Below, piece by piece: positions 18,154 to 33,556 of a DNA stretch of 64,000 nt; the first letter of the stretch is position 1, and the number at the start of each line of letters is the position of its first letter. Position numbers and translations under genes: made by a program. Source of the stretch: an uncultured Verrucomicrobiota bacterium (GTDB taxonomy: Bacteria > Verrucomicrobiota > Verrucomicrobiia > Limisphaerales > UBA9464); NCBI GenBank assembly GCA_903910585.1, contig CAIWAH010000379.1, forward strand, positions 3,161 through 67,160. The letters run 5' to 3'. Below the pieces are notes generated by a model. That model saw nothing but the letters and a program-made list of their open reading frames with translations. It was not told the DNA's origin and made no database searches.

Positions 18154-19374
18154 CTACTTCTCGGAGGCGATGACGGCCCGACGGATGCGTTGGCCATCCT
18201 TCAGGCGGTCGCCGGGATAGAGCACCACCTCGTCGCCTTCCTTCAGGCCGGACAGAATCTGCGTTTCAGGTCCGCTGGTGCGGCCGACCTCCACGGGGCG
18301 GATCTGCACCGATTCGCCCGCGCACACAAAGGCGGCCCAGGCCCCGTTGCGGCGGAACAGGGCCCCGGAAGGAACCTTCAGTGCCCGGGCGTCCTCCCAG
18401 AGGAGGATGCGGCCTTCAACGCGAAAATTGTCGCCCAGGCTTTTCCGTTCCGCCGCCGGCGTGACGAGGTCCACGACCACGTTGACGCGCTGTTCCTCGA
18501 CGCCGAGCGCGGAGACCTTGGTGAACGCGGCCGGCTCCACCAACCGCACCTGACCGAGCAACGGTTGTGGACCACCCCACTGTTCAAGTTCGACCTTGGT
18601 TCCGGGAACCAGGGCGGCGCCGTCGCGCGAGAGCACTTCGATCACCGCCTCCAGGTCGGTGGGATCGCCCAGCTCGATCAGGGGCGTGCCGGCGGCGACG
18701 GTGCGGGAACTTTCCTGGAACACCCGCAGCACACGGCCCGAAATCGGGGCCCGCACCTCGACCGGCTCGGAGGCGCCACCCGTCGGGGCGTCGAATTCAC
18801 GCAGCTCGGCCTCGGCCTGTTTCAACGAACTTTCGGCGACCGCCAGTTCCTTGGCGGCGCTGGTTTCGCGCCATTGCACGCCTTCGAGTTCCTGCGGCGT
18901 GACCACTTTGCCGGAGCTGAGCTGTTCAAAGCGTTTCAGGTCATTGGCGGCGAACCGGTGGGCTTCCCGGGCCCGGGCCAGCGTGGCGCGGGCGACCTCG
19001 CGGCGGGCTTCCGCCAGGGCGCGGGCGCGGGGATCGAGCAGCGTGGGGCGCACCGGTTCGATCACGGCCAGGACGGTTTCGCGGGCGACCACGTCGGCGC
19101 CGACCTTCCACGGAATCCGCCGGAGCTCTCCCGCCACCGGCGCGGCGACGACGAAGCGCTGGCGGATACGGGTTTTGCCCTCCTCATTGAGGGTGACCCG
19201 CAGCAGGCCGGTGGTGACGCGGGCGGTTTCGACGGTCGCTGGCTTGGGCCACAGGCCGGCGCCGATCAGCAGGATTAGCAACAGGGCGCCGAACCAGGGC
19301 AGGAAGCGGCGCGCGCCGGGTCCTTTCTTCGGCGGGCGGGCGGGAGCAGGAGCGGGAGCGGCTGGAGCGTTCAT
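18154..19374 (-). CDS. Efflux periplasmic adaptor subunit (HlyD/MacA-like)
   Basis: N-terminal TM, APVAG/APISG lipoyl-like motifs, coiled coil and FTKVSALGVEEQRV. Confidence 0.9.
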   Translation of the reverse strand: MNAPAAPAPAPARPPKKGPGARRFLPWFGALLLILLIGAGLWPKPATVETARVTTGLLRVTLNEEGKTRIRQRFVVAAPVAGELRRIPWKVGADVVARETVLAVIEPVRPTLLDPRARALAEARREVARATLARAREAHRFAANDLKRFEQLSSGKVVTPQELEGVQWRETSAAKELAVAESSLKQAEAELREFDAPTGGASEPVEVRAPISGRVLRVFQESSRTVAAGTPLIELGDPTDLEAVIEVLSRDGAALVPGTKVELEQWGGPQPLLGQVRLVEPAAFTKVSALGVEEQRVNVVVDLVTPAAERKSLGDNFRVEGRILLWEDARALKVPSGALFRRNGAWAAFVCAGESVQIRPVEVGRTSGPETQILSGLKEGDEVVLYPGDRLKDGQRIRRAVIASEK

Positions 19375-19430
19375 GGAAAGGGGTTCAGGCAAGTCCGGTT
19401 CTCGCGTCAGTAAGTGGCCGGGCAGTTACG

Positions 19431-19747
19431 GCAGGACAGGCTGCCAGCCTGTCCGCTGCGCCGAGAGGCGCGAAATGAACGAAGCAAAAAGCTCACGCGG
19501 CGCGATGCCGGGCGACGGCCGGTTGATGGTCGGTTGGCGGACGGCTTAGTTGGAAGCGAGCCTGCCCTCACTGCTTCCCTACCCATGAACCTAGGGGCGT
19601 CCGCCCACCCCTCACCCGCCCTTCGGGCACCCTCTCCCCTCCTCCGAGGAGGGGAGAGGGAAGGGGTGAGGGGTGCGTCCCCTTCAGGTTCAGGGGCGCA
19701 AATCGCTAGCCTGAACGACTCGTGGAATCTCTCCCCCGGGGAGAGGG
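19431..19747. repeat. Composite intergenic repeat mosaic: family-3 REP variant plus a family-4 REP interrupted by a 150-bp element
   Basis: GCAGGACAGGCTGCCAGCCTGTCC at 19431-19454; REP halves at 19565-19580 and 19731-19747 separated by 19581-19730. Confidence 0.8.
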
Positions 19748-19936
19748 GGAATGGGAAGACAGCGCTACGCACAGACAACCTGCCTGAACACGGGCCGCGA
19801 TGGGGCCGAGTGAAACTAAGAGCCGCCGAGATTTCCGCCAGCCCTGTGAACGTTGAGAGCCGTGGCCCACGTTCAACTCCGCAGGTTGCGGGGCAGCCTG
19901 CCCACGGTTGCGATCGGCGCGGTTGGATCCTGGCTT

Positions 19937-22302
19937 TCATTCCGGCGCGCGCAGGGCGCTGACGAGGTTCAGTTGGTTGAGCCGGCGCAGCACGAGGAAG
20001 CCGGAAATCGTCGAGGCGATGGCCACGACCAAGACGGCGAAGGCGTAGTTGTGGGCCGTGAGCACGAGCGGCAGGCGCACGGTCTCGGTGTTCACCTGCG
20101 TGACAATGGCGGTGGCGAAGCCCGTGCCAAGCAGCAGGCCGCACGGCACCGCGAGCAGCGCGAGGATGACGAGTTCGGTGACCAGCACCGCGGCGACTTC
20201 GCGCTGGGAAAAGCCGATCACCCGCAGCGTGGCCAGTTCGCGGGAGCGTTCCGCCAGCGAGATGCGGGCATTGTTATACACGACTCCGAACGCCACCACG
20301 GTGGCAAACGTCAGGTAGATCGTCTGGATCAGGTTGATGCTCGCGGCGGTGGTCTGCTCGAAGTTCTGCCGGAGCGATTCCTTGATGGCGACCCAGCCGA
20401 CGCGCGGCACGGTCTTCAGTGCCCGGAGAAAGTCCGTTCGCCGGTCCGGATCCACCGTGAAGCTGGCGCCGCTGACGAGGTCGCCTTCGCCCAGCAGGCG
20501 GTTGAGCGCGGTGAGGGAAAGGTAGGCGTTGAGGCCGGCCATGTCGTCGGCCACGCCGACCAGCGGCACGTCCGCGCTCAGCCGGCGGCCTTCGAGGACC
20601 TCAATACGAAGGCGGTCGCCGATCCGGGCCCCGAGCACCTCGGCGAGCTTCTGGGACAGCACCACGCCATGTTCGGGCGGGGCAATCTCCCGGGTGCCTG
20701 GCGCGATGATCCGCGTGTGGTCGCCGGTGCGAGTGAGACCCTGCAGGGCGATCTGGCGCGAGCGGTGGCCGAAACGCAGGCGCGCGACGGCATTGCGAAA
20801 CGGTTCGACAGTCTGCACGCCGGGCAGATGCGCGAAGGCGTCGCGGGCCCGGCGGTCCTGCGGCTCGATGAGGCCCACGCTGATGTCCTGCCGCTGGGTG
20901 ACATCCCACTGGAATCCCAGCACCACGGCGACGCTGTCACGAAAACAGTTCGGCACGATCATGATGCCCGTGGCGAGCGCCAGGCCGGCGACGGTGAACA
21001 GCGCCTGCATGGGCCGGCGTTCGAGGTTGCGCACGGCGATGCGGAACGAGTGCGACAGGAAGCGGGCGATGCCGGTGCGTTCCAGCACGGCCGGCCGGTA
21101 GCGCGCCGGCGGTTCCGGCCGCATGGCCTCCGCCGGCGGCAACTGGGCCGCCCGGCGCACCGCGCTGAACACGCCCGCGACGGCGGCAAACGCGCTGACC
21201 GCGAGCGCGAGCACGAACGCGCTCCGGTCCGGGATGAAGTGCAGGTCCGGGAACCGGAACCACATCCGATACATCACGACGAGCTGCCGGCCGAGCAGGT
21301 TGCCGCCGACGGCCCCGAAGACCGTGCCGGCGGCGACCATGACGAGGGCGAACTTGAGGTAATGGGCGACGATCTGCCGGTTGCCGAAGCCGAACGCCTT
21401 CAGGATCGCGATCTGTTCGCGCTGCAGGTTCAGCAGGCGGGCGAGCACCGCGTTCACCATGAACGCCGCCACGCTCAGGAATACAACCGGGAACGCGACC
21501 GACAGCGTCCGGAGCACGCCGATCTCGTCGCGCACGCGGATGTGCGACGGGTGATCCGCCCGGCCGTGGGCACCGCGTCCGCCGTAGGGTTCGAGCAGGC
21601 TGTCCAAAGCGGCGATCACCGCCCGTTCGCTGGCATCTGCCGCCAGTGTGAGCGCGAGCGAATTGAAGGCGCCGTAAAGGTCGAAGGCATGGGCGAGCTC
21701 CTCGTAGGGCAGCCAGAAGATCCCGTAGCTGCGGTTGTCCGGCAGGGCGGCCCCGGGGCGCGACTCAAAGATGAATTCCGGGGAAAGCACGATGCCCGCG
21801 ATGCGAAAAGTCTGCCGGCGGCCGTTGAGCAGCAGGGCAATGCTGTCGCCGGGTTCGAGGCGGTTGGCCTCCGCGAACGCCTCGCTCACCAGCACCTCGC
21901 GCTTGCCGCCCGGGCGGAACCACTGGCCGCGGCGCAGGAAGAGGCGGTTCAGCTCCGGCTCGCCATCCTCCGGCAGCGAACGGACGTTGCCCGAGGCCGG
22001 CTCGTCGAGGCCCGGGATGTCCAGCGTGACCTGCACCGACAGGCCGCCCTGCACCAGCGCCACTCCGGGAATGGCCCGCACGCGGTCCAGCAGTCCGAGC
22101 GGCGCCCGCTTGAGCTGGGCGAAGACCTCGGCGAAGCGGTGCGCGCGGTAGTAGGCGTCGCTCGTGGACTCCAGCGAGTAGATCAGGCTCCGCGCCATGA
22201 TGAGCATCGCCAGCCCGCAGGCCATCACGAGCGCGACCGCCAGCGCCTGCCCCTTCATCCGGGACAGGTCGCGCCAGAGTTTGCGGTCGAGCTGGGCGAG
22301 CA

Positions 22303-22306
<4 letters not shown>
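19937..22306 (-). CDS. ABC transporter permease (MacB/FtsX-like, two repeats)
   Basis: KLWRDL start, [11 protein letters not shown] and [14 protein letters not shown] motifs. Confidence 0.9.
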
Positions 22307-27271: not shown

Positions 27272-30200
27272 TTATGTCGCCGCCCGCAGCCGCTCCAGCA
27301 GTTCGTCGAGCCGCTTGGGCGAGGCCGGCTTGGCGGTGCCGAGTTCCTGGGCGAACACCGACACCTTGTATTCCTCGACCAGCCAGCGGAACTCATCCGC
27401 GAGCTGCTGTCCTTCCGGCGTGGTGGGCGGCGTGGCCCGCAGGCGCTTCACCTCGGCGACGTAGGGTGCGACGAGTTTGACCCGTTCGGCCTCCTTGGGA
27501 GGATTGTTGGCCGCCCGCTCGATCCGCAGCATGAGCGCCTTGAGATAACGCGGCAGGTGCGGCAGTTGGGCGAACGGCACCTCCGCCAGAAACCGGCGCG
27601 GAACCAGCGCATCCACTTCCGCGGCGAATCCGGTTCCGGACGAGGCGGCGGGCTTGACCGCGGCGGCAGCGGGGCCAAGCAGCGCTCCAAGACTGTTGAG
27701 CTGGTTCAGTGACTTGAGCGGGGCGGCCGCTTTGGCGGCCGGTGCGGTGGCACCGACACCGGCGCGCTGGGCGGCCTGCTGGCGGAACTGGAGCACCTGC
27801 CCGACGCGGTCGATCAACTGGGCGGCGAGGCCCGGCAACTGGCGTTTGGCCGCGGCCACCGCCTCGTCGAAATTGGCGGTCGTCAGGCGGGACGGGAGTT
27901 CGGCTGGCAGGACCTGCCGCTTCAGGTTGAGCAGGGCGGTTTCCTGCAACTCGGCGCCACCGCCGATGGCGGCCGCGAGCGCCTCGAAGCGGACGAGGGC
28001 GCGCAGGTCGCGTTCGAGCCACGCGAAGTCCTTCTGCAGGGCAAGCTCCACCAGCCGTTGCCACGCCGGCAGACTCGCGCGTCGGGCGGCAACGCTGGAC
28101 GGGAACAGCCGCACGCCGACACCGGCCGCATCAAGCTGGAGTCCGGGGAAACCGAAAACCGGCAGGCCGTGCTGGTCGCCGGCGGGGATTTTTTCCGGCA
28201 GATCGCCGCACGAGAAGGTCGTGAGCCCGTCGCGTTGCCACTGGCGGGCGGCCTGTTTCCACGCGGCCGATTCGGTGGGCGGCGTGACCTTCACCTGGGC
28301 GAGGTGCTGCTTGAGCGCGCCGAAATCGCGGCCGGCAGCCACGGGTTTCGGGCCGTTGCCGATCAGCTCGATGCGCGGGCGCAGGTGGGCCGGCACGCCG
28401 TCGGTCCGCCACGCGTCGGACGGCACGGTGACCTGATACCGTTCGCGCAGGAACCGGCCCAACGAGTCATGGAACGACCCGCCGGCGGGACGGAAGTCGC
28501 GGACGATCTCCTGCACCTTGGGTTCGATGGGCAGCAGCTCGCGCCGGACGGCTTTGGGCAGCGAGCGCAGCAGTTCGTCCATCATCGCGGCCCGCAGCCC
28601 GGGCACGGACCATTCCAGCAGGGCCGGTGAAACGGCATCGGCCAGCGTGACCGGCAGCCGGATGGTGACGCCGTCGTGCTCCTCGCCGGGGGCATAGGCG
28701 TAGGCGAGCGGCACGGCCTGACCGCCGAACTCCAGCGCGTCGGGAAACGAGCGCGTGTCGAGCGCGAGGTCGCGGCCACCGCTGAGGTCGTCCTCGGTAG
28801 CGCACAGGGAAGCGGCCCGGCCCGGTTCACGCAGCCATCGAAGCAGTTCGTCACGCGACGAAATGTGCCGGAGCTTGCCGGCGTAGAATTTGAAGAGCGC
28901 GTCATCGAGATCGCCGAGGTCGTGGCGGCGCAGCCGGGTCTGCCAGCTTTCGACCTTCTCGCGCACGCGGCGGTTGCGGCTGAGGAAGCCGAGCCCGGAG
29001 GTTGAGGCAAGCTCAGGTGATGAATCAGAGCGACGGCGTTCGGTCACGGCCGATTGTCCTTCACCCCGATCTTCCGACCTCCGACTTCCGGCTTCCGACT
29101 TCCCACTTTCAACCTCGGTTTCGCCGCCGCGGCCACGGACCGGCGGTTCCAAATCCTCCTCCACCAGCGCCGAGCGGATGAAAATCGCGGTGGCGTCGTC
29201 GGGGTTCAGGTTTCCGTAGGCGACCTTGCGTCGGAATACCTCCAGCCCTTGGAAGCGCGTTATTTCCTCCACAAGCACGCGGCCGGCGCTCGCGCTCCAG
29301 TGCGGATGCTGGTGGCTGACCTGGCAGAGATGCGGCGCGAGCTGAACGATCCAGTGCGGATCAATCCCCGCGACCGTGCGCGCGTAGAGCTGCGAGGTTT
29401 CCACCAGTTCACCGGCCACCAGCCACTGCGGCTGATTCGACTTCGGCGCCGGCGCGGGATTCTTTTCGGGCCGGCTGTGACGTCCCTTGGTCGGCTTCTC
29501 GCCGCGTTCAAAGAGCGCGGAGCCGGGAAAGATGGTCACCTGGCGGTTGCCGCCGGCCTTGTAGAGGTTGCGCTCCTCGCGGGTGGAAACGTGTCCGAGC
29601 AGGCCGGCGAGAATGGAGCGGTGGATGGCCTGGTAAAGCTGTTCGTCCGTGCGGAGTTGTTTGTCCCTGGCCTCTCCAGGGTGGCTGGAAAGCCGCCCCT
29701 CCGAGTCTTGGAAGGCGCCGACGTTCTCCAGCGCGCCTTCGAGTTGGGCGTGGAGATCCTGCCACTCGCGCATCCGCAGGTAGGAGAGGAAGTGCTGCTT
29801 GCAGAACTTCCGGCGCGCGCCCTGCGTGCGGAGCGCTTCCCACTGGTCGTGAACCGCGCTCCACACGTTGAGCAGCGTGAGGAAGTCCGACTGCGGATGG
29901 CTGAAGCGCCGGTGCGCGACATCGGCGGCTTCGCGCTGGTCGAGCGGGCGTTCGCGCGGGTCCTGGATGCTGAGGCCGGCGGCGATGATGAGCAGTTCGC
30001 GCGTGCTCTGCTCCTGCTGCGCCTGGAGCAGCATCCGGCCCAGCGTGGGATCAATCGGCAGGCGGGCAAGGTCGCGTCCGAGGGGCGTCAGTTCGCGGGC
30101 GCCATCGAGCGCACCGAGTTCCTGGAGCAGCGCGTAACCGGCCTGGATTGCGGCCGGCGTGGGCGGCTGCACGAAGGCGAACGTCTCGATGTCGCCGAGC

Positions 30201-31741
30201 CGGAACGCCTTCATGCGCAGGATGACCTCGGCGAGGTTCGCTCGCTGGATTTCCGGCTGCGTGAAGGGCGGGCGCGCCTGGAAGTCCTCCTCCGAATACA
30301 GCCGCACGCAGACGCCGTCCTGCACGCGGCCGGCGCGGCCCTTGCGCTGGTTGGCGCTGCTCTGCGAAACGGGTTCGACCGGCAGGCGTTTGGTCCGGGT
30401 GCGCGCCGCGTAGCGGCTGATGCGCGCGAGGCCGGCGTCCACGACGTAGCGGATGCCGGTAATGGTCAGGGACGTTTCGGCGATGTTGGTCGCGATGACG
30501 AGCTTGCGGCGCGATGAGGGCGCGAACACGCGTTGCTGGTCGCCGGCGCTTAGGCGGCCGAACAGCGGCACAATCTCCGCCTCGCGGCCGAAGCGGCCTT
30601 CCAGTTGGTCGCTGGTCTCGCGGATGTCGCGCTCGCCCGGCATGAAGATCAGCACGTCGCCGAAGCTGGACTCGTAAAGGATCGTCTCCGCGGCCCGCAC
30701 CGCGGCGTCCACATAGGTCAGTTCACCGGAGCCGGCGCGCAGCGCGGCGCGGATGGAGGCGGTGAGTTGGAGTGTTTCGGAAGAGATGGCGCTGCGGGTG
30801 GGAAGCCCGCCCTCACTCCGGCCCTCTCCCCCGGGGAGAGGGGGTGGCGTCGCGACGTTGCCGCTTTGCTCTGAACTTAGGGGCAAGGTCAGCTCGTCGG
30901 CGGGCAGGCTGGCAGCCTGCCCTACGTTGTCCCATTCCTCCGTGTCCGCCTCGTGATCGTAGGGCGCGTAGATCACGTCCACCGGGAACATCCGGCCGGA
31001 CACCTCGATGATCGGCGCGTGGCCGAAGTGCCGGGAGAAGGCCTGCGTATCAATCGTCGCGGAGGTGACGACGAGCTTGAGGTCGGGCCGGCGGGCGAGC
31101 AGGCCCTTCAGGTAGCCGAGCAGGAAATCAATGTTCAGCGAACGCTCGTGCGCCTCGTCGATGATCAGCGCATTGTAGTCCGACAACAGCGGGTCGCCCT
31201 GCGTCTCGGCGAGCAGGATGCCGTCCGTCATCAGCTTCAGATACGTCTCGGAACTCGAATGGTCGTCGAACCGGATCTTGCAGCCCACTTCGCGGCCCCA
31301 GCGGACATTCAGCTCCTCGGCGATGCGCTGGGAGATGGACAGCGCGGCTACGCGTCGCGGCTGGGTGCAGCCGACCTTCGCCTCGATGCCCAGACCGGCC
31401 TCGAGGCACATCTTGGGAATCTGCGTGGTTTTGCCGGAGCCGGTTTCACCCGCGATGACGACGACCTGGTGCGCGCGGATGGCGGCGACGATCTCGTCCT
31501 TGCGCGCGGTGATTGGCAGGTCCGGCGGGTAAGTGACCGGCGGGACGTGCAAGCGGCGCAACTCGCGCAGTTCGGCCGATTGCCGGGCCTGGGTGAGCAG
31601 GCGATCCACGAGGGCGTCATGCTGCTCGGCGTGCAGACGGTCGCGCAGCACGCGGACGAGCCGCGAACCGAGCCGCACCCAGTCGTGCGTCATGGTCCGC
31701 GGCAGCAGCGCTTTCAGTTCCTCGACGCGGGCGTCGTTCAT
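27272..31741 (-). CDS. hrpA: ATP-dependent RNA helicase HrpA with in-frame repeat-derived insertions
   Basis: GETGSGKT, TQPRR, DEAHERS, SAT, TNIAETS and QRKGRAGR motifs; C-terminal EEYKVSVFAQELGT. 1489 aa. Confidence 0.95.
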   Translation of the reverse strand: MNDARVEELKALLPRTMTHDWVRLGSRLVRVLRDRLHAEQHDALVDRLLTQARQSAELRELRRLHVPPVTYPPDLPITARKDEIVAAIRAHQVVVIAGETGSGKTTQIPKMCLEAGLGIEAKVGCTQPRRVAALSISQRIAEELNVRWGREVGCKIRFDDHSSSETYLKLMTDGILLAETQGDPLLSDYNALIIDEAHERSLNIDFLLGYLKGLLARRPDLKLVVTSATIDTQAFSRHFGHAPIIEVSGRMFPVDVIYAPYDHEADTEEWDNVGQAASLPADELTLPLSSEQSGNVATPPPLPGGEGRSEGGLPTRSAISSETLQLTASIRAALRAGSGELTYVDAAVRAAETILYESSFGDVLIFMPGERDIRETSDQLEGRFGREAEIVPLFGRLSAGDQQRVFAPSSRRKLVIATNIAETSLTITGIRYVVDAGLARISRYAARTRTKRLPVEPVSQSSANQRKGRAGRVQDGVCVRLYSEEDFQARPPFTQPEIQRANLAEVILRMKAFRLGDIETFAFVQPPTPAAIQAGYALLQELGALDGARELTPLGRDLARLPIDPTLGRMLLQAQQEQSTRELLIIAAGLSIQDPRERPLDQREAADVAHRRFSHPQSDFLTLLNVWSAVHDQWEALRTQGARRKFCKQHFLSYLRMREWQDLHAQLEGALENVGAFQDSEGRLSSHPGEARDKQLRTDEQLYQAIHRSILAGLLGHVSTREERNLYKAGGNRQVTIFPGSALFERGEKPTKGRHSRPEKNPAPAPKSNQPQWLVAGELVETSQLYARTVAGIDPHWIVQLAPHLCQVSHQHPHWSASAGRVLVEEITRFQGLEVFRRKVAYGNLNPDDATAIFIRSALVEEDLEPPVRGRGGETEVESGKSEAGSRRSEDRGEGQSAVTERRRSDSSPELASTSGLGFLSRNRRVREKVESWQTRLRRHDLGDLDDALFKFYAGKLRHISSRDELLRWLREPGRAASLCATEDDLSGGRDLALDTRSFPDALEFGGQAVPLAYAYAPGEEHDGVTIRLPVTLADAVSPALLEWSVPGLRAAMMDELLRSLPKAVRRELLPIEPKVQEIVRDFRPAGGSFHDSLGRFLRERYQVTVPSDAWRTDGVPAHLRPRIELIGNGPKPVAAGRDFGALKQHLAQVKVTPPTESAAWKQAARQWQRDGLTTFSCGDLPEKIPAGDQHGLPVFGFPGLQLDAAGVGVRLFPSSVAARRASLPAWQRLVELALQKDFAWLERDLRALVRFEALAAAIGGGAELQETALLNLKRQVLPAELPSRLTTANFDEAVAAAKRQLPGLAAQLIDRVGQVLQFRQQAAQRAGVGATAPAAKAAAPLKSLNQLNSLGALLGPAAAAVKPAASSGTGFAAEVDALVPRRFLAEVPFAQLPHLPRYLKALMLRIERAANNPPKEAERVKLVAPYVAEVKRLRATPPTTPEGQQLADEFRWLVEEYKVSVFAQELGTAKPASPKRLDELLERLRAAT
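29071..29112. repeat. Heptamer tandem array (CTTCCGA consensus, 6 copies) inside hrpA
   Basis: CTTCCGA CCTCCGA CTTCCGG CTTCCGA CTTCCCA CTTTCAA; 42 nt in total. Confidence 0.75.
30810..30925. repeat. Two REPs (families 4 and 3) in frame inside hrpA
   Basis: CCCTCACTCCGGCCCTCTCCCCCGGGGAGAGGG at 30810-30842 and CGGGCAGGCTGGCAGCCTGCCCTAC at 30901-30925. Confidence 0.85.
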
Positions 31742-31797
31742 GCCGGAGCCGGGGAGTTTGACGGAAGCGCCGGGGCGGGGGAATGGGGAATGTGCGG

Positions 31798-33090
31798 CTA
31801 GTTCCGCCCGCTCAGTTTCAAGGCCGCCGCCAGCGTCTGCAGGTGGGCCGTGAGTTGGAAACGGTCCCGGAAGCGGTCGCGCAACCGGAGTCCATCCTCG
31901 TTCTGGACGACTTCGATCAACGCCCGCGCCGCGGCCGCCGGATCGCGCGGTTCCACGAGGCCGGCGTAGCCTTCGGGCAGCATCTCGGGAATGCCCCGCC
32001 AGCGCGTCGAAACGAGGGGCAGGCCGAACGCCATCGCCTCGATGAGGTTCAGGGGTTGGCCTTCGTTGGCGAAGTAGCTGGGGAACAGGAACACGTCGCT
32101 GTCGCGCAACGCGGCGGCCTTGGCCTCCGGCCCGAGGAAGCCGGTGTGGCTCACGCACGCGGCCAAGGCCGGATCGGTGAGCCGGCTTTTGAAATCCGCC
32201 TCCACGTCCGAGGTGGGGAAGGTTCCCGCCACCAGCAGCCGGAATTTCAACGGGCGAGGCAGCCGGGTCCCGAGTTCGCTGGCCAACCGGATGGCTTCGA
32301 CGGCGTCGAGCACGCCCTTGTCGCGCGAGCACAGGGCGAGGAACAGGACCTTTACCTCCACGGGGGTAGCCGTTTCGCCGCCCGGCGTGGCGCCGCAATC
32401 TGCTGGGAAGGCACCCCTCACCCCGTCCCTCTCCCCTCCTCCGAGGAGGGGAGAGGGTGCCCGAAGGGTGGGTGAGGGGTGGGAGCACCCCTGGTTCATG
32501 GGTAGGGTTTGGCGCTCCGCCAGTCGCCGCCGCCGATGTTCTGCCAGTGTCAGGTCAAACTCCGGGCACGGATCAGGAACGCCGTTGGGCACCACCGCGG
32601 TGCGCTGGGGGCGGAACCGGTCGGCATCGGGCTGATTGAAGCGCGACAACACGAGATTGAGCGCGGGCCGGCCCAGCAGGCGGTGCGAGAGGGCGCGTTC
32701 GAACGGATTGGCGACGTCTTCGAGCCATTGGCCGAGTCCGACGGCGTGCCAGTGGAAGATGACGTGGCGGAACCACGGCCGCAGCAGCGCGAGCACGATC
32801 CAGTCGCGGTAAAGCGAGTTCCGTTTCGGCGGGCTGGGCACGTAGTAGAGCGTGCGGACGTTGTGTTCGCGGCCCAGTCGTTTGGCCTCGCGGACGTAGG
32901 CGAGGAGCTTTTTCAGTTTGCCGCCGCGGGCCGAGCCGACATCGGTGAGGTCGTCCGAAAGCCGGGCGTCCACATGCAGCACCTCGATCCCGTGTGTCGG
33001 ATCGGCCCGGAAGCCGTCCACGAGATACTGCACCATCTGGCTTTGGCCATGGTGCGGCGGCGGGACGTGGGCGAAGACGACGAGCTTCAT
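31798..33090 (-). CDS. Glycosyltransferase family 4 with in-frame repeat insertion
   Basis: HFHWH-like HWH, VPNGV, KG and EGQPLNLIEAMAFG (Ex7E) motifs. Confidence 0.92.
   Translation of the reverse strand: MKLVVFAHVPPPHHGQSQMVQYLVDGFRADPTHGIEVLHVDARLSDDLTDVGSARGGKLKKLLAYVREAKRLGREHNVRTLYYVPSPPKRNSLYRDWIVLALLRPWFRHVIFHWHAVGLGQWLEDVANPFERALSHRLLGRPALNLVLSRFNQPDADRFRPQRTAVVPNGVPDPCPEFDLTLAEHRRRRLAERQTLPMNQGCSHPSPTLRAPSPLLGGGERDGVRGAFPADCGATPGGETATPVEVKVLFLALCSRDKGVLDAVEAIRLASELGTRLPRPLKFRLLVAGTFPTSDVEADFKSRLTDPALAACVSHTGFLGPEAKAAALRDSDVFLFPSYFANEGQPLNLIEAMAFGLPLVSTRWRGIPEMLPEGYAGLVEPRDPAAAARALIEVVQNEDGLRLRDRFRDRFQLTAHLQTLAAALKLSGRN
32411..32507 (-). repeat. Copy of the intergenic element 19577-19676, in frame within the glycosyltransferase
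   Basis: Reverse complement matches 19577-19676, with 3 mismatches over the ~73-nt palindromic core and a shared CCCTACCCATGAACC end. Confidence 0.9.
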
Positions 33091-33157
33091 CGCGGTGCGC
33101 GGCGGAGCCTGCACGGAAGGGTGGCAAAAGACGAAGCCGTTCGTGCACCGTCGGGCC

Positions 33158-33556
33158 ATGGCGGTGCGCGATTCCTACCGGGAATATGTCCTGGAACAGC
33201 TCGGCCGGGTGCGCCCGGTGACGTGGCGGAAGATGTTCGGCGGCGTGGGCCTGTATGCGGACGACCGCTTCTTTGCCCTGCTCGACAACGACACGCTCTA
33301 CTTCAAGACCGGCGACGCGAACCGGGCCGACTTTGAGGCCCGGGGAATGCCGCCGTTCCAGCCGTTTGGCCCGGGCACCAAGCCCATGGACTACCATGAG
33401 CTCCCGGGCGACGTGCTGGAAAACGTGGCCGAACTTGGGCGGTGGATCGCGAAGGCCGTCGCCGTGGCCGCGACCACCAAGACAAAGAAGCCCGCCCCGA
33501 AGCGCCCTAAGGCGGCTCCGAAGCGGGCCGGAAAGACCAAAGGCGACAGGTCCTAG
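33158..33556 (+). CDS. TfoX/Sxy N-terminal domain protein
   Basis: RKMFGGVGLY...LYFK...PF...MDY motifs; Lys-rich tail. Confidence 0.9.
   Translation: MAVRDSYREYVLEQLGRVRPVTWRKMFGGVGLYADDRFFALLDNDTLYFKTGDANRADFEARGMPPFQPFGPGTKPMDYHELPGDVLENVAELGRWIAKAVAVAATTKTKKPAPKRPKAAPKRAGKTKGDRS

Follow-up and report, generated by a model that had tools for sequence, protein, structure and literature searches.

The 64,000-nt stretch analysed here (the window) belongs to contig CAIWAH010000379.1 of an uncultured bacterium of the order Limisphaerales, phylum Verrucomicrobiota (assembly GCA_903910585.1). Between two minus-strand genes, coding for an HlyD-like protein (18154-19374) and a MacB/FtsX-type permease (19937-22306), it contains a repetitive extragenic palindrome (REP) interrupted by a 150-nt insert, which is oriented away from both genes. 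This insert is a copy of a gene-less, site-specific element family with a conserved shell, comprising a head, ACCC(A/C)TGAACC, a subterminal inverted partner, GGTTCAGGGG, and a 34-nt hairpin tail ending in CT.

Structure of the insert

The left flank of the insert is CCCTCACTGCTTCCCT (19565-19580) and the right flank is CTCCCCCGGGGAGAGGG (19731-19747). Excision of 19581-19730 restores a 33-mer that, counted by script, is identical at 30 of 33 positions to an intact REP at 30810-30842, as had been claimed in a preliminary description of this DNA made from the sequence without database searches. The insert itself begins with ACCCATGAACC and ends with GGAATCT, and the dinucleotide CT is present at both of the junctions given in that description, 19579-80 and 19729-30. 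The arms 19582-19592 and 19686-19696 are complementary at 91%, in agreement with the near-inverted segment reported at 19687-19696. Within these arms is a perfect palindrome of 15+15 nt (19630-19644 / 19646-19660), surrounded by an outer pair (19606-19617 / 19664-19675) of the CCCTCACCC/CCCTCTCCCC type, as in the host REP; these nested arms correspond to the internal palindrome of the host-REP family that had been noted. Folded as single-stranded DNA, the insert has a predicted energy of -51.9 kcal/mol (z = -7.3 against shuffled sequences). It has no usable coding capacity, consistent with its earlier characterisation as non-autonomous.

Homology among the copies spans 19577-19736, beyond the ends of the insert, because the target halves CCCT and CTCCCC are themselves conserved. 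The boundaries 19581-19730 are correct as originally drawn, since they are the ones shown by empty paralogous sites. Left halves of the CCCTCAC..CCCT kind are followed by an intact CTCCC[C/T/A] in 40 of the 59 such motifs of the genome.

A conserved shell with variable interiors

A short-word BLAST search of the region against the 5.33-Mb genome, assembled in 411 contigs, revealed full-length copies at 88-93% identity on three contigs (C250, C248 and C190); over this genome and a same-genus genome, full-length copies are 86-93% identical. Six further contigs hold partial copies, and so does another place on the contig of the window. A profile built on the right-hand 50 nt detected 17 tails in the genome; they reveal two subfamilies with identical ends and differing interiors. 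Subfamilies A and B share the ACCC(A/C)TGAACC start, the partner GGTTCAGGGG about 34 nt from the right end and the tail CAC-N5-CG-hairpin-GTGGA(A/T)TCT; the interior, or cargo, is a REP-like palindrome in subfamily A and a GGGAGCGCCGGCGTC... hairpin in subfamily B. The motif GGTTCAGGGGC[AG]C occurs at 16 sites in the genome, 14 of which have a homologous tail ending exactly at +44, the remaining two being unrelated to tails. No flank was imposed on this count, in which the tail end is CT in 13 of the 14 cases and CA in one, and the bases that follow are CTCC in 13 and TTCC in one. The 13-mer CTACCCMTGAACC occurs 11 times in the genome and never when read backwards.

Tails from this genome, from species-representative genomes and from metagenome contigs make up a set of 72, in which 59 have a recognisable head no more than 260 nt away; the other 13 lie at a contig edge or have a degenerate head. 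The 59 elements are 96 to 273 nt long. Their first four bases are ACCC in 42 cases, the ATGAACC-type head core in this set being imposed by the search pattern. CT precedes the element in 51 of the 59 and CCCT in 40, while base composition predicts CT in about 6%. Both the ends and the target site are thus common to the copies, a point on which the preliminary description had made its interpretation depend.

The interiors of the 59 elements form 19 unrelated clusters of palindromic, lineage-specific cargo, so that the term 'REP-carrying' is appropriate for subfamily A only and not for the family in general. Several cargos are GTAG...CTAC repeat doublets, and one element (L151) consists of a nearly loopless 65-nt shell. 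The central palindrome of subfamily A, of about 66 nt, and the subfamily-B core are found in large numbers by themselves in other genera of the order; the interiors are therefore resident repeat families accommodated in the loop of the shell.

The inverted partner pairs with the head to form the closing stem P1. When 30 tails are aligned, the partner segment (columns 7-19) shows no variation at 11 of its 13 positions and at least 90% conservation at the remaining two, columns 8 and 18. The hairpin of the tail, P2, lies 6 nt from the element end and is paired in 90% of alignment cells, against 31-44% after sliding the 3' partners by 1-3 columns. Two of its pairs vary, one being GC or AU (16:11) and the other CG or GC (15:12), and one G.T pair is kept in 25 of the 30 tails; these switches represent few events, because they largely separate two lineages. 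Pairing in P2 is nonetheless clearly maintained. The very termini contain no inverted repeats (ACCCATG... against ...GGAATCT), the inverted partner lying 34 nt inside.

A covarying hairpin in which a G.U-compatible pair is kept could also indicate that the shell serves in the first place as a cis-regulatory leader or as the gene of a small structured RNA, its repetition being secondary. In keeping with such a role, the head contains an ATG that the inverted partner can sequester, tails of a second subtype described below end with GGAGG 6 nt before the next ATG, and a contig from an RNA library covers a related copy. However, a search of 19000-20300 against Rfam 15 found nothing at threshold, the best score being 30.4 bits against a required 76, for a microRNA hairpin model on the palindrome. 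The window copy is oriented away from both neighbouring genes, and the RNA-library contigs, which cover 19606-19735 with 1 to 12 differences per contig and therefore come from other copies, may be DNA carry-over. A primary RNA function would also leave the exact interruption of a REP unexplained, and it is considered extremely improbable.

Insertion site and evidence for mobility

The insertion site is 5'-CCCT^CTCCCC-3' in the C-rich arm of the REP (junctions are marked by ^), and the gain at an occupied site is the element plus one CT, with no other duplication; the insertion is as precise as originally proposed. In this genome a composite REP unit is empty six times (C54, C110, C124, C223 on the other strand, and twice on C261) and filled at least three times (C250, C223 and C190), by two different subfamilies. 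The empty site reads ...AACCCT^CTCCCCGCGC... and the filled one ...AACCCT^element-CT^CTCCCCGCGC.... On contig C79 a reversed subfamily-B element lies within the 3' palindrome arm of a subfamily-A element, so that GGGGAGAGGG is divided into GGGGAGAG and AGGG; read on the other strand, this is the same site, and the extra dinucleotide is again the same. Elements of subfamilies B and A stand head to tail on C123, and in another genome each arm of one REP hairpin holds an element (L097). At many filled sites the outer flanks are unrelated and the REP loops are different.

The copies might instead have spread without individual mobility, through an old insertion carried along with copied REP clusters or through recombination or gene conversion between REPs. 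Such a process would fit the several filled sites that share about 100 nt of flank in a composite REP unit, the limited likeness of the copies in this genome (86-93%) and the failure to find an orthologous empty site. It would not be expected to produce filled sites with unrelated flanks and different REP loops, occupation of the same kind of site by two subfamilies, nested, double-arm and tandem insertions that keep the same junction, or a genome with 54 heads in which several copies are near-identical. Spread of this kind alone is therefore very improbable.

Some results weigh against mobility. The empty sites anticipated in the preliminary description were found among paralogous loci and not among orthologous ones: in five same-genus genomes the 2 kb region gave only repeat matches, and the downstream HlyD-like protein had no match in same-genus genomes at E 1e-20. 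The locus is partly present in 15 public DNA runs from lake, lagoon and freshwater samples; in four public runs the contigs break within the element and none bridges an empty site, so that these runs are neutral as to empty alleles and transcription. A 263-nt joint found in public runs was distrusted, as it has only 23 nt on one side and less than 95% likeness. No circular junction was observed; tail-CT-head junctions are present in the assemblies and are indistinguishable from tandem copies. On balance, the elements very probably constitute a mobile, non-autonomous family that targets REP arms.

Distribution and a second tail subtype

The pattern used for the wider searches consisted of the tail and the first flank bases, which imposes the right flank, so that only the tail count in the window's own genome is independent for this flank. 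The pattern was found in 30 stretches of species-representative genomes, 21 of them labelled Verrucomicrobiota, Verrucomicrobiia or Limisphaerales, and in 28 stretches of metagenome contigs. CT followed by the head was present in 29 of 121 sampled genomes of the order and had no occurrence in the other 92. The five richest genomes, from four families, contain 54, 22, 11, 10 and 9 heads (0-3 in the reversed control); the 54 exact CT+head sites of the first, where the reversed control is 0, include several near-identical copies. Such patchy copy numbers fit a mobile family. A complete single-contig genome contains two copies of about 105 nt and nothing larger.

Typical elements in typical REP contexts were also observed on contigs of assemblies labelled Bifidobacterium, Bifidobacteriaceae and Kapaibacterium (L090, L093, L105, L106, L114 and L115). 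These contigs are probably mis-binned Verrucomicrobiota DNA.

The richest genome contains a second tail subtype, with the partner GGTTCATGG and a tail ending in ...CCGTGGAGGCT, which is homologous to the first and again has a CT end. Its elements form head-to-tail arrays or else have head-like right flanks (CT^CCCCATGAA, CT^CTCCATGAACC). In one case (L151) the CT^CTCCATGAACC after the element opens a frame resembling pyridoxal phosphate (PLP) enzymes, and L155 and L159 are similar. In all three the ...GGAGGCT tail ends directly before the head-like gene start, which places GGAGG 6 nt upstream of the ATG. Within one genome the target class thus varies with the tail subtype, an indication that at least part of the address is carried by the element itself.

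Features of the window

The features of the window are listed in Table 1.

Table 1. Positions of the element, its parts, the host REP and related repeats in the window
Feature	Position	Strand	Supporting observation
Left half of interrupted host REP (CCCTCAC box, spacer, CCCT; last two bases are the left CT)	19565..19580	+	
150-nt element, subfamily A, one terminal CT included	19581..19730	+	Copies elsewhere; fold as single-stranded DNA
Head ACCCATGAACC, 5' half of closing stem P1	19581..19591	+	
Cargo, nested REP-like palindrome	19606..19675	+	Outer arms and inner arms
Subterminal inverted partner GGTTCAGGGG, 3' half of P1	19687..19696	+	
34-nt tail: hairpin P2 at 19704-19724 (degenerate in the window copy), GGAAT, terminal CT at 19729-19730	19697..19730	+	
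Right half of host REP, hairpin CTCCCCC GGGGAG	19731..19747	+	
Intact REP of the same family used for empty-site comparison, inside the hrpA frame	30810..30842	+	
Second copy without tail: head, cargo, degenerate partner; CCCT before	32397..32507	-	

The second copy had been described as a recurrence, at 32411-32507, of the left end and cargo after CCCT. The head, the cargo and the preceding CCCT (in element orientation) are indeed there, with the correction that this copy is in the opposite orientation, has no tail and lies inside an open reading frame (ORF). It is 89% alike over element positions 1-114 and is in frame in an ORF for a GT4 glycosyltransferase (31798-33159, minus strand), where its translation inserts about 46 residues between the N-terminal part and the C-terminal domain, which starts with VKVLFLALCSRDKG.

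The hrpA frame (27272-32488, minus strand) encodes a DEAD domain at residues 332-480 and a Helicase_C domain at residues 601-722, and the intact REP corresponds to residues of about 548-559. A second palindrome, GGGCAGGCTGGCAGCCTGCCC, stands beside this REP (window 30780-30930), also between DEAD and Helicase_C. The hrpA repeats look like an in-frame repeat insertion in the helicase linker.

Just upstream of the element, at 19434-19454, the window contains a perfect 10+10 palindrome, GGACAGGCTG/CAGCCTGTCC. The summed contig depth over it in two public runs (X1 and X4) is 53-151, compared with about 5-14 alongside, and it is therefore another multi-copy repeat.

Search for the mobilising enzyme

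The preliminary description attributed mobility to an IS110-like or HUH enzyme supplied in trans and proposed looking for a transposase gene bounded by the same ends. No such gene was found: there is no gene between head and tail at any of the 72 tails, and neither the 28 IS110 loci nor the 64 loci of Y1 transposase genes that were inspected have these ends. The IS110 loci come from six genomes, 21 of them from five other element-bearing genomes; all six are draft assemblies, in which a partner might lie unassembled. The window's own genome has three intact-looking IS110 genes and some remnants, without the shell ends. IS110 matches are absent from the second- and fourth-richest genomes (94% and 95% complete) and amount to a fragment of 112 amino acids (aa) in the fifth; one further element-bearing genome also has no IS110 match, and in genomes rich in IS110 (14, 10 and 7 matches) heads number 2, 0 and 0, respectively. 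The absence of a gene between the ends, the absence of IS110 or Y1 loci with these ends and the failure of IS110 to track element abundance together indicate that the enzyme acts in trans.

Several candidates for an autonomous form were rejected. The genes upstream of a solo tail on C376 are ordinary, the element at L143 is truncated by an IS4-like fragment, L126 is a 30-nt head piece abutting a truncated IS110 gene, and L124 is a decayed tail near an IS110 gene. At L238, where a fragment of a tail lies close to a Y1 gene, the fragment is part of the normal flank, since a second copy of the Y1 unit adjoins a different sequence. One rich genome has 320-aa Y1 genes in multiple copies with intact REPs upstream of them; these are paralogues diverged by 68-74% and lack shell ends. 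In the IS110 remnants on C341 and C317 the start context happens to read ACCCATGAAC, the true left end being CT^AGACCG.

These two remnants (C341:3118-3730 and C317, about 19360-19650) are truncated IS110-group copies with the common left end CT^AGACCGTATGG, and not partners of the shell. Four Y1 (RAYT-like) genes of this genome (C398:5500-6200, C230:26400-27600, C390:14600-15600 and C411:15400-16350) are bracketed by palindromic repeats of their own in a REPtron-like manner, and one of the repeats bracketing the Y1 genes of this genome has about 45 genome occurrences. The end of another contig (C160:2300-2362) has an apparent untrimmed adapter, presumably a sequencing-adapter sequence.

An IS110-group insertion sequence (IS) of another element-bearing genome (L134:1187-1824, L194, L195, L197 and L199) occupies the same REP arm and has a non-coding region of about 190 nt upstream. 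Its four observed left junctions read ...CCCTCT^TGTATCTGG, with three distinct flanks, two sharing a flank of about 40 nt, and its right junction reads ...CCGTTGCT^CCCC. Its insertion point, the second CT in CCCTCTCCCC, lies 2 nt further right than that of the shell, to which its ends bear no relation. The non-coding region of this IS holds ACCCTCTGG and GGGGAG, which could be target guides.

The shell could be a deletion derivative of an IS110 element, or a module that piggy-backs on one, moving as a double-stranded circle through a DEDD recombinase and a trans-supplied bridge or seek RNA; the crossover core would be CT. This explanation would account for CT at both junctions, for the lack of terminal inverted repeats and of duplication beyond the core, and for the REP target; three intact-looking IS110 genes and remnants are present in this genome, and an IS110-group IS enters the same REP arm with the junctions CCCTCT^TGTATC and GTTGCT^CCCC. 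The relation would be like that of the orphan ssr9 modules to ISPpu9, which inserts in REPs with a dinucleotide at both ends and whose transposase circularises orphan A'-ssr9-B' modules (PMC12288879). A mini-IS with only the ends has also been reported to move when given transposase and seekRNA in trans (PMC11187229).

However, none of the 28 IS110 loci has a head or tail, the ends of the REP-targeting IS are unrelated and its CT is the neighbouring one, IS110 is absent from two of the five richest genomes and present only as a fragment in a third, as noted above, and the IS110-rich genomes are poor in heads. Such an enzyme would need neither hairpins that are conserved nor an inverted partner offset by 38 nt. 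The shell repeats, of which the left one starts 1-2 nt from its end and the right one stops about 34 nt from the other, misfit the geometry of IS1111, in which the subterminal repeats of 11-13 bp have 7 nt (left) and 3 nt (right) beyond them according to PMC11187229. Inspected by eye, the shell contained only unconvincing four-base matches to the target as bridge- or seek-RNA-like guide segments. The IS110-like mobiliser proposed in the preliminary description is thus not supported as stated, the shared REP arm and CT of the L134-type IS being the one observation in its favour, and an IS110 origin of the mobility is doubtful, though still to be reckoned with.

Another site-specific recombinase, of the serine, tyrosine or an unrecognised family, might recombine the tail-CT-head junction of a circle with look-alike sites. 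The targets of the second subtype, CT^CCCCATGAA and CT^CTCCATGAACC, do resemble the element's own junction, and head-to-tail arrays would be expected under this mechanism if donor and target sites are alike. A two-base crossover is typical of serine recombinases, and neither IS110 nor Y1 genes are linked to the shell. No candidate gene was identified, in searches none of which was aimed at one, and the covarying hairpin points to a folded single strand and not to duplex sites. Such a recombinase is unlikely to be the enzyme sought.

Proposed mechanism

The element would be cut and rejoined at CT on both sides, with an excised single-stranded or circular form as intermediate, by an enzyme encoded elsewhere in the genome. 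It would act in trans, as REP-associated tyrosine transposases (RAYTs) are thought to do for REPINs, which are hairpin-forming, non-autonomous repeats. A single-strand transposase of the HUH Y1 (RAYT/IS200-like) type may recognise the folded ends and cut at CT. The assignment of the enzyme to this HUH kind is tentative; as a candidate only, a RAYT-like transposase is rated slightly above an IS110/bridge-RNA enzyme, and the HUH alternative of the preliminary description fits the data somewhat better than its IS110 alternative. It is favoured because the ends are folded, the hairpin is maintained with a fixed mismatch, no autonomous form was found among 72 tails, co-occurrence with IS110 fails and tail subtype goes with target. 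The ends of IS200/IS605 elements carry target specificity in the element's own DNA. Cleavage of single-stranded DNA by RAYTs of three species is specific for CT and takes place on either side of a hairpin (PMC3479197 and PMC8266576). All five element-richest genomes have Y1 matches, which number 14, 6, 5, 14 and 2. The CT itself does not discriminate between the two enzyme types, being the core of some IS110 elements and the cleavage site of RAYTs too.

A number of observations run counter to a RAYT-like enzyme. Flanking shells were found at none of 64 Y1 loci (eleven genomes, about 1.5 kb of flank each), and Y1 matches are absent from a 96%-complete genome with 4 heads. The five Y1 (IS200/RAYT-type) genes of the window's own genome have other repeat families on their flanks. 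A GTAG tetranucleotide is missing 5' of the hairpin in the shell; it is present in several cargos, and GT^AG is also the bottom-strand reading of the left junction, where it stands 3' of the stem. Among the 30 aligned tails, the four bases 5' of P2 are variable and show no covariation with the terminal bases. The end hairpins P1 and P2 are unlike each other, while IS608-type elements have two end hairpins that are alike. Finally, the RAYT papers examined contain no experimental demonstration of RAYT-driven site-specific insertion.

The RAYT-like reading can be extended to a self-addressed mini-transposon, in which the folded ends, and not a linked gene or the guide RNA of a parent element, would specify the target, and a dispersed, domesticated HUH-type enzyme would act at CT. 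One tail subtype would then direct insertion into the REP arm and the other a few bases before ATGAAC start codons, regenerating a GGAGG ribosome-binding site, while the loop would serve as a landing pad carrying resident repeats. This extended model is, as a whole, distinctly unlikely. If it is true, an element of the second subtype could come to lie between a gene and the region upstream of it without much cost.

The means by which REPs and other short palindromic repeats spread have long been an open question. The exact junctions, the base-for-base comparison of empty and filled sites and the defined 10-nt target make the chemistry of cutting and joining directly testable in this family. 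An enzyme of the RAYT-like type would be the first case of sequence-specific insertion by such a protein; one of the IS110 type would imply a new donor class for RNA-guided recombinases, which would be relevant to programmable insertion tools. In view of their in-frame entry into coding sequences and, in relatives, their position before start codons, the elements are likely to shape genes and their expression in Verrucomicrobiota, a poorly studied phylum.

Comparison with known systems

In the literature on IS110/IS1111 elements, REPs, miniature transposable elements with inverted repeats (MITEs) and Verrucomicrobia, with supplementary tables outside the comparison, no description of this family was found; it is apparently widespread in Verrucomicrobiota and undescribed. 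Unlike classical DDE-type MITEs, the shell has no inverted terminal repeats and causes no fixed-length duplication beyond CT. IS621 has a REP target and a CT core and causes no duplication, and the shell resembles it and other REP-targeting IS110 elements in these respects. The latter differ in being autonomous, with their own recombinase and guide RNA, and the local example uses the adjacent CT and has other ends. Elements of the IS200/IS605 type and palindromic miniatures lack terminal inverted repeats and target duplication, have a subterminal hairpin near the end and insert beside a short specific sequence. The shell likewise has no terminal inverted repeats, no duplication and a hairpin a few bases from the end, but its end hairpins are dissimilar, no guide-to-cleavage pairing is recognisable and no TnpA with these ends was found.

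Of the cases described so far, the orphan ssr9 module of ISPpu9 comes nearest, followed by REPINs with their RAYTs. According to PMC12288879, the orphan A'-ssr9-B' modules of this IS110-group element of Pseudomonas putida are, like the shell, gene-less, inserted in REPs with the same dinucleotide at the junctions, devoid of terminal inverted repeats and dependent on an enzyme acting in trans, and the palindrome of their left box resembles that of the target, which is a further likeness. ISPpu9 differs in that a partner IS in the same genome shares the A and B boxes and in having an AG core (PMC12288879). The search for a partner with the shell's ends was negative, the shell does not co-occur with IS110 genes, its core is CT and its interior is swappable.

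REPINs are comparable in being hairpin-forming and non-autonomous and in having no linked transposase, their trans-acting RAYT (TnpAREP) being single-copy or dispersed. The specificity of RAYT cleavage for CT next to a hairpin, as given in PMC3479197 and PMC8266576, parallels the CT at the shell junctions. Unlike REPINs, the shell has no GTAG 5' of its hairpins and flanks no Y1 gene, and a defined 10-nt target and exact junctions like its own are not described for REPINs. Dimers of GTAG or CGTC repeats inside a longer conserved palindrome were noted, without explanation, in Anabaena, Thermomicrobium and Halothiobacillus (Di Nocera et al. 2013, PMC3733652). These embedded REP doublets resemble the cargo-in-stem arrangement of the shell, and no tail, CT end or REP-arm target was reported for them. 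The present family is set apart by conserved asymmetric ends, a swappable interior, a defined target in the REP arm (or at the start codon) and the lack of a linked enzyme, and falls between MITEs, REPINs and orphan IS110 modules.

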